17,131 bases of DNA, taken from NCBI RefSeq assembly GCF_006345805.1, contig NW_021824958.1, forward strand, positions 1 through 17,131. Direction: 5' to 3'. The stretch comes from Octopus sinensis (lineage: Eukaryota). Every line of letters starts with the position of its first letter. The first letter of the stretch is position 1. Below, one piece after another: positions 3,551 to 3,785 of this stretch. Both the position numbers and the translations under genes were made by a program. Under the pieces are notes generated by a model, which saw only the letters and a list, made by a program, of their open reading frames with translations, ran no database searches and was not told the origin of the DNA.

Positions 3551-3785
3551 GTTGTTGTTTTTGTTGTTGTTTGTGTTTAGTGCCAGGTCAGCACTGATTG
3601 AGCAGAACTTTGATCAAAGACGTTCCAGCTGTGACCACCCTGTTGTTTTTTAACCCATGTTCAAAGGACCCAGGACCACATTATCTAACACAGCTCTTGT
3701 TTTAAAAGCATCAATGTATGATTTGAGGGAGACACCACTGCTATTTCCAGCACATCTAGCTACCATGAAGATGTCTCAATCATTC
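3551..3785 (-). mobile_element. Near-complete family E element (~230 bp): HDV-like 5' module, middle, 3' module and (AAC)n tail
   Basis: Read on the minus strand: 5' module 3785-3718, middle ~3710-3670, 3' module 3643-3572 ending ...gctgacctggcactaaacacaaacaacaac. No tRNA A/B boxes or terminal inverted repeats seen. Confidence 0.65.

Follow-up and report, generated by a model that had tools for sequence, protein, structure and literature searches.

The stretch of DNA analysed here, a repeat-rich contig of 17,131 nucleotides (the window) from a genome of 2.72 Gb, contains at positions 3551-3785 a short element with the size of a SINE and without an obvious tRNA head. What kind of element this is, how it was copied and whether its 5' module derives from a ribozyme are the questions raised by this locus. 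The initial annotation had regarded it as a promoterless retroposon released from host transcripts by self-cleavage and copied by a LINE enzyme.

An old family with a fixed 5' end

The element consists of approximately 210 nt followed by an (AAC)n tail, and it belongs to a dispersed family. In 80 blind 10-kb stretches taken at round coordinates, 82 matches were found in 36 stretches, and none in the same DNA reversed. On C1-C18, 49 matches in 60 stretches correspond to 82 per Mb (bootstrap 50-120), and the genome-wide estimate is 1.4-3.3 x 10^5 pieces, roughly 2 x 10^5. The 75 near-full copies diverge from their consensus by 25.6% outside CpG sites, and the CpG sites themselves are mostly decayed.

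The 5' end of the family was analysed in an enriched sample of 180 scored matches, from which one array locus was excluded; 126 of these begin at one of profile positions 1-39, and 103 extend to the 3' end. Among 123 heads, 64 belong to 5'-complete copies, in which conservation ends at one position and the composition further upstream is that of the background. The letters at +1/+2 are CG, TG or CA in 38/64 of these copies, compared with 17% in the flanks, and this excess indicates that +1 is the C of a CpG. The upstream DNA is unrelated from copy to copy (6 of 1891 pairs were alike, three due to upstream copies and one to a local duplication), and a co-directional second copy lies within 150 nt upstream in 5/62 5'-complete copies. 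The element is short and carries no open reading frame, small-RNA head or polymerase III boxes. ARAGORN at its standard threshold found no tRNA in the window or in the reconstruction, and at a lowered threshold it gave two undetermined opposite-strand matches among 62 flanks. The absence of polymerase III boxes noted initially holds for the A box, which was not found; for the B box it needs qualification, as degenerate B-box-like words with one or two mismatches are present. With its fixed 5' end and without a small-RNA head, the element conforms to the non-autonomous retroposon first proposed, and the sharp boundary and unrelated upstream DNA speak against a tRNA or 5S head further 5', which had been named as a point to check.

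An alternative hypothesis is that the family represents a 5'-truncated tRNA- or 5S-derived SINE, or a DNA-type element (MITE or Helitron), in which the fold described below is coincidental. Old families do lose their 5' ends, and the 3' hairpin followed by CTAA found here resembles a Helitron end. However, the sharp 5' boundary, the scarcity of alike upstream pairs and the lack of a tRNA at the standard threshold argue against such an origin, as do the variable AAC tails, the signal of target-site duplications, the shuffle test of the head fold and the absence of terminal inverted repeats, the last in agreement with the initial observation that inverted repeats were lacking. Thus, the SINE, MITE or Helitron reading is already largely refuted, and we consider it extremely improbable.

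The flagged copy and its array

A profile built from dispersed genomic copies gave 29 matches between positions 158 and 6932 of the window, all 29 on the minus strand, comprising three long copies, three tail-only pieces and 23 head-only units. The three long matches fall where the same module order had been recognized on the minus strand (97-340, 1902-2140 and 3551-3785), and the tail-only pieces coincide with the additional 3' modules listed at 3310, 3435 and 6878; the 23 head-only units were missing from that list.

The flagged long copy (profile match 3554-3776, minus strand, E 4e-42) is identical to the reconstruction at 152 of 207 aligned letters (73%). Its aligned 5' start lies at approximately 3790, where it merges into a (TG)n run. 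From there, on the minus strand, it comprises a decayed head module (3725..3790, from the alignment to the reconstruction) that is homologous to the predicted HDV-like ribozyme of the family, a spacer with an A-rich run (3695..3724) that is also the boundary of the head-only and tail-only arrays, a 3' module ending in TAAAC (3575..3694) with a remnant of the terminal stem-loop at about 3585-3610, and an (AAC)n tail (3551..3574) evident in the sequence. In the alignment to the reconstruction, P1, two L3 letters and the catalytic C are gone, and the predicted fold of this head is not better than that of shuffled sequence. The flagged copy is a decayed, dead copy of an old, very abundant retroposon of about 210 nt.

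One tail-only duplicate lies immediately behind this copy (3432..3548, E 9e-17) and a second one follows (3290..3421, E 2e-12), while six head-only units found by the profile search, with microsatellites between them, lie upstream (3844..4526), all on the minus strand. As the flagged copy closes a run of head-only units and has two tail-only duplicates behind it, it lacks flanking DNA of its own that could be used. The second long copy (1901..2147, minus strand; profile match 1901-2134) shares 140 of 206 letters (68%) with the reconstruction and is preceded by seven head-only units (2153..2723, minus strand, profile search). The third (97..340, minus strand; profile match 158-335) shares 138 of 206 letters (67%), and its 3' module has a poly-T expansion. 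In addition, the minus strand carries three head-only units at 5179..5475 (profile search), a young array at 6041..6756 in which seven head-only units, 96-98% alike, repeat in tandem every 111 bp, and a 3'-module fragment at 6881..6932 (E 2e-5).

Such arrays of heads or tails alone probably result from ordinary local duplication of copies that were already dead. The head-only arrays might instead be retrozyme-like products of self-cleavage and rolling-circle copying, and the 23 co-oriented head-only units in the window, together with young head arrays on C27 and C29 with periods of 107 and 111 bp, would fit such a process. The array units, however, have a CpG-decayed L3 and a broken P1, tail-only arrays are as common, and unrelated repeats of the window are also found in arrays; we therefore think retrozyme-like copying very unlikely and retain local duplication as the explanation.

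Elsewhere in the genome, long young satellites consist of the head alone (107-bp period) or of the 3' module alone (about 130-bp period) on C27 and C29 (L008, L035-L060; L005-L029). Copies often stand head-to-tail (L063, L148, L159, L165, L173 and L182), and at L032:1363-1756 two copies form a head-to-head, inverted pair.

Other repeats are also present in the window. A tandem array of approximately 139 bp at 10775-13500 derives from part of another short repeat, and a 66-bp tandem array at 15425-16318 lies within the 3' region of the RTE LINE of the window. At 8070-9050, an inverted arrangement around 8776-8855 produces spurious microRNA matches in Rfam; we take the fragments of this region to be mariner-like.

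Predicted HDV-like fold of the head

The initial annotation had described the 5' module as ribozyme-like, and modelling is consistent with this: the first 65 nt of the reconstruction fit an HDV-like double pseudoknot, with P1, P2, P3, P1.1 and P4 in order and 21 Watson-Crick pairs. The predicted P1 has 5 bp starting from C+1 plus a C-C mismatch, compared with an HDV-like norm of about 7 pairs; P2 has 7 bp; P3 has 2 bp, or 3 with a G-U pair, against the usual 3 pairs, and encloses an L3 of seven letters; P1.1 is a single U-A pair; and P4 has 6 bp with a GAAA loop, followed by C-A-A-A-U before P2'. In the canonical arrangement P2 follows directly after C-N-A-A, whereas J4/2 here has one extra letter after CAAA, a letter that is common to the L271-L273 LINE discussed below. 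A descriptor of the head matched 0 of 100,000 shuffles and did not match the reverse strand, although it was fitted after the consensus had been seen, so that the shuffle figure overstates the odds; over 3.14 Mb of real DNA, the descriptor matches an AT microsatellite only.

Column counts over 123 heads show L3 (U..CG) and the catalytic C to be conserved, which holds for the reconstruction; among the 64 5'-complete copies, none retains both the L3 core and the catalytic C. The family is dead within the sampled copies. In the dispersed majority (12/23 measurable copies), the lack of one letter leaves P2 and P3 competing for a single G; the canonical spacing is seen in 85/87 units of the array variant. 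The minimum-energy fold predicted for the head contains a competing 4-bp hairpin over P3'/P1'. Paired positions show no covariation among the 64 copies (Fisher p >= 0.73), as expected under neutral decay, and Rfam scans of the window and of three copies were negative for ribozymes. Sequence from three RNA runs and a contig set contained short pieces of other copies and nothing bearing on 5' ends. According to the available part of PMC3774820, P1 mismatches of the C-C type are linked to lost cleavage. The L1Tc ribozyme, as described in the available parts of PMC3185411 and PMC4035085, cuts before C1 and has a one-pair P1.1.

A competing explanation is that the head is the 5' end of a LINE whose main role was that of an internal promoter for RNA polymerase II, with a fold already impaired in the master element. 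The weak P1, the P2/P3 competition and the competing hairpin are in accord with this explanation, CGTG occurs at +23 to +26, near the position of the L1Tc promoter element (+25 to +28; PMC4748587, available in part), and LP-SINEs with LINE-derived heads are known in molluscs (PMC4758252, available in part). However, CGTG overlaps L3/P3, so the fold by itself accounts for it, and the 5' end is the first base of P1, with all five helices present. The two functions are also not exclusive, as the L1Tc head does both in the account available from PMC4748587. Since that head also acts as a promoter, by way of a similarly placed CGTG, the promoterless status originally ascribed to the element is best taken as putative. 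We regard a mainly promoter-type head as possible but rather doubtful, and a head derived from an HDV-like ribozyme is preferred.

Insertion and the search for a partner LINE

Target-site duplications, which the initial annotation had proposed to look for, were sought in 15 copies with both ends, by searching behind the tail for words adjoining +1 and comparing the result with swapped pairs (28 settings tried). For 10-mers whose last base lies 1-2 nt before +1, z was 4.3-4.9, and for 12-mers with their last base 0-1 nt before +1 it was 4.4-4.8; control words taken 10-15 nt farther upstream gave -1.1 to 1.5. A preceding, less strict test, with 20 copies that were loosely aligned, had reached a best z of 3.8. 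Target-site duplications of 10-12 nt argue for target-primed reverse transcription, and insertion of the element by this route is thus supported statistically.

The 3' module is predicted to fold into a terminal stem-loop, which is followed by TAAAC and short AAC repeats; AAC stands after the TAAAC end in 35/69 copies and AAT in 9/69. This 3' end had been likened to that of the RTE LINE at 15393, a 5'-truncated copy with a GAT tail (15393..16515, minus strand). The two share TAAAC only, after which the RTE continues with GAT repeats and not with AAC. Mobilisation by an RTE LINE would be in keeping with the shared TAAAC before the tail, with the abundance of RTE in this genome and with the role of RTE as a known source of bipartite elements (PMC5786205, available in part). 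Yet the four RTE families inspected have tails of GAT, TAG/AG or GATA repeats and in no case of AAC, and the profile finds no match in an RTE 3' UTR, whereas AAC tails and stem-loops mark Ingi-like families, one of which ends in GCTAAAC, like the TAAAC of the element. We consider mobilisation by RTE quite unlikely; with its (AAC)n tail and terminal stem-loop, the element lends no support to the RTE in the window as partner and points to Ingi-like LINEs, a label that we partly assume for these presumed partners.

Searches with a reverse transcriptase motif that we take to be Vingi-like led to AAC-tailed LINEs. Three chromosomal families of this kind bear RNase H and (AAC)n tails (L279, L287 and L300-L319), some of their copies being closely alike; L279 (C9:3.61 Mb) and L287 (C23:10.26 Mb) have APE, RT and RNase H. 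Among 23 Ingi-like 3' ends, 22 finish in AAC/CAA repeats, mostly behind a predicted stem-loop. Alignment of the element with these 23 ends found nothing beyond the last ~13 letters, except at L305. There (C2:203.49 Mb, one of 20 ends fetched), the AAC tail of an Ingi-like LINE is immediately followed by a separate copy of the element.

A LINE sharing either end had also been suggested as a target for searching, and the outcome was negative among approximately 100 LINE loci and the 23 Ingi-like 3' ends, the best candidates of the searches: none shared the head or the 3' module. Family searches for RT and APE retrieved RTE, CR1/L2-like, R4-like, Tx1-like and I-group LINEs without the ends of the element, and the 3' module is absent from the CR1/L2-like, R4-like and Tx1-like LINEs inspected. 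Upstream of 33 tail-only matches, no LINE coding match was found among the matches listed, and the six chromosomal Ingi-like 5' regions are truncated or interrupted by insertions. In a quick tree containing no named Ingi reference, the inspected AAC-tailed LINEs stand apart from RTE but are not joined in one clade. The direct parent LINE may be extinct.

A structural counterpart is a young full-length LINE on unplaced contigs (L270-L273), with an ORF of 1107 aa, a 2A-like motif, APE and RT, and, in L270, no RNase H match. When 1.04 Mb of LINE loci were scanned with a descriptor similar to that of the head, the only matches fell on the first base of L271-L273. Their predicted head has a 7-pair P1, an 8-pair P2, a C-G P1.1 and a five-letter J4/2 as in the element, and they have a 12-nt target-site duplication, a terminal stem-loop and an AAC tail. 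The head of L270-L273 thus has an intact-looking predicted HDV-like fold and is a good candidate for cleavage. All nine head matches of this LINE lie on unplaced contigs, and its protein relatives among the matches listed are mostly unnamed metagenome sequences, without an Ingi or Vingi label; we treat it as an analogue, which may belong to an organism other than the octopus. The 2A motif is also found in CR1/L2/Rex1 (PMC3708506). A looser descriptor gave two matches, which were rejected as chance-like. Unplaced contigs from about C7755 to C12814 carry I-group LINE families that are absent from the chromosomal matches, and they may be DNA of another organism.

Origin and mechanism

Dispersal, the fixed 5' end, the (AAC)n tail, decay and the later tandem duplication of halves are directly observed. 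Taken together with the predicted head, these data make it probable, in our judgement, that the family is a ribozyme-headed short retroposon, likely copied by an Ingi-like LINE, whose dead copies were later duplicated in halves. The master RNA would have been transcribed by RNA polymerase II, through read-through or from an internal promoter, and would have cleaved itself immediately 5' of C+1. An AAC-tailed Ingi-like LINE would then have supplied an enzyme that recognized the 3' stem-loop and AAC tail of this RNA, copied it and inserted it by target-primed reverse transcription. A likely origin of the element is the joining of both ends of one such AAC-tailed Ingi-like LINE.

A bolder and unlikely variant is that the element is a chimera, free of any single parent LINE, in which an L1Tc-type (C+1) HDV ribozyme with a bacterial-type core was joined to a captured 3' module and hitchhiked on AAC-tailed Ingi-like enzymes. 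It would have spread on the order of 10^5 self-cleaving modules through octopus introns and intergenic DNA, forming the largest ribozyme-headed retroposon family noted in a mollusc, and a few copies might perhaps work as host ribozymes, as proposed for CPEB3.

Significance and comparison with known systems

Under the preferred reading of a ribozyme-headed short retroposon, the family suggests that a polymerase-III-independent element with a predicted ribozyme head can become as numerous in an animal as SINEs are, and it may extend the L1Tc/ingi-type C+1 ribozyme design to cephalopods. It points to Ingi-like LINE families in the octopus genome and offers material for seeking conserved, still active copies. 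It also corrects annotation, as such elements are easily classed as SINEs of unknown head. No description of the element in cephalopods was found in the literature searched; an entry in Dfam or Repbase may exist. The use of HDV-like ribozymes by some SINEs is described in the available part of PMC6765202, and the available part of PMC12988792 does not mention ribozymes.

With regard to the core of the fold, the consensus of Rfam RF02682, an HDV-like ribozyme from F. prausnitzii, has the same P3-L3-P3 letters as the element and an A as P1.1 partner, whereas P1, P2 and P4 differ in sequence and three copies have no Rfam match; the L271-L273-type LINE head scores 11.5 bits against it (E 7, gathering 44). 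The P1.1 pair is U-A in the element versus C-G in L271-L273 and Vingi-2_Gav, few families having been compared. We take the 5' end of Vingi-2_Gav to resemble the CPEB3 ribozyme. As printed in the supplement of PMC5786205 (available in part), this 5' end appears by reading to fit the same fold as the element.

The LP-SINEs of gastropods and bivalves are likewise short mollusc retroposons with a LINE-type and not a tRNA-type head (PMC4758252, available in part). Homology to them was considered and rejected, as the printed LP head is by eye unlike that of the element, and no ribozyme is proposed for LP in the part of PMC4758252 available.

Bipartite non-autonomous LINEs derived from RTE, Ingi, Vingi and R2 (SIDEs), with 5' ribozymes, are described in the available part of PMC5786205. 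They resemble the element in size, in their two modules, in a LINE-type ribozyme 5' end, in the microsatellite tail and in the lack of a small-RNA head. Their defining trait is that both ends are homologous to a single named LINE (PMC5786205); for the element, no such LINE was found among the loci searched. Close in design are also two trypanosome elements, NARTc, derived from L1Tc, and RIME, derived from ingi, which have the Pr77/L1TcRz head and, in the available parts of PMC3185411 and PMC4035085, are short, non-coding and start at the first base of an HDV-like fold, as the element does. They share with it the C at +1, a single-pair P1.1, a P4 hairpin, a similarly placed CGTG and dependence on a LINE. 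The element differs in its animal host, its number of about 10^5 pieces, its AAC instead of poly-A tail, a P1 of 5 and not 7 pairs and a five-letter J4/2; moreover, no partner LINE with the same ends was found among the loci searched, and all examined copies are dead. The element thus belongs to the short LINE derivatives of the NARTc/RIME/SIDE type, a design that is already known from trypanosomes and flies.
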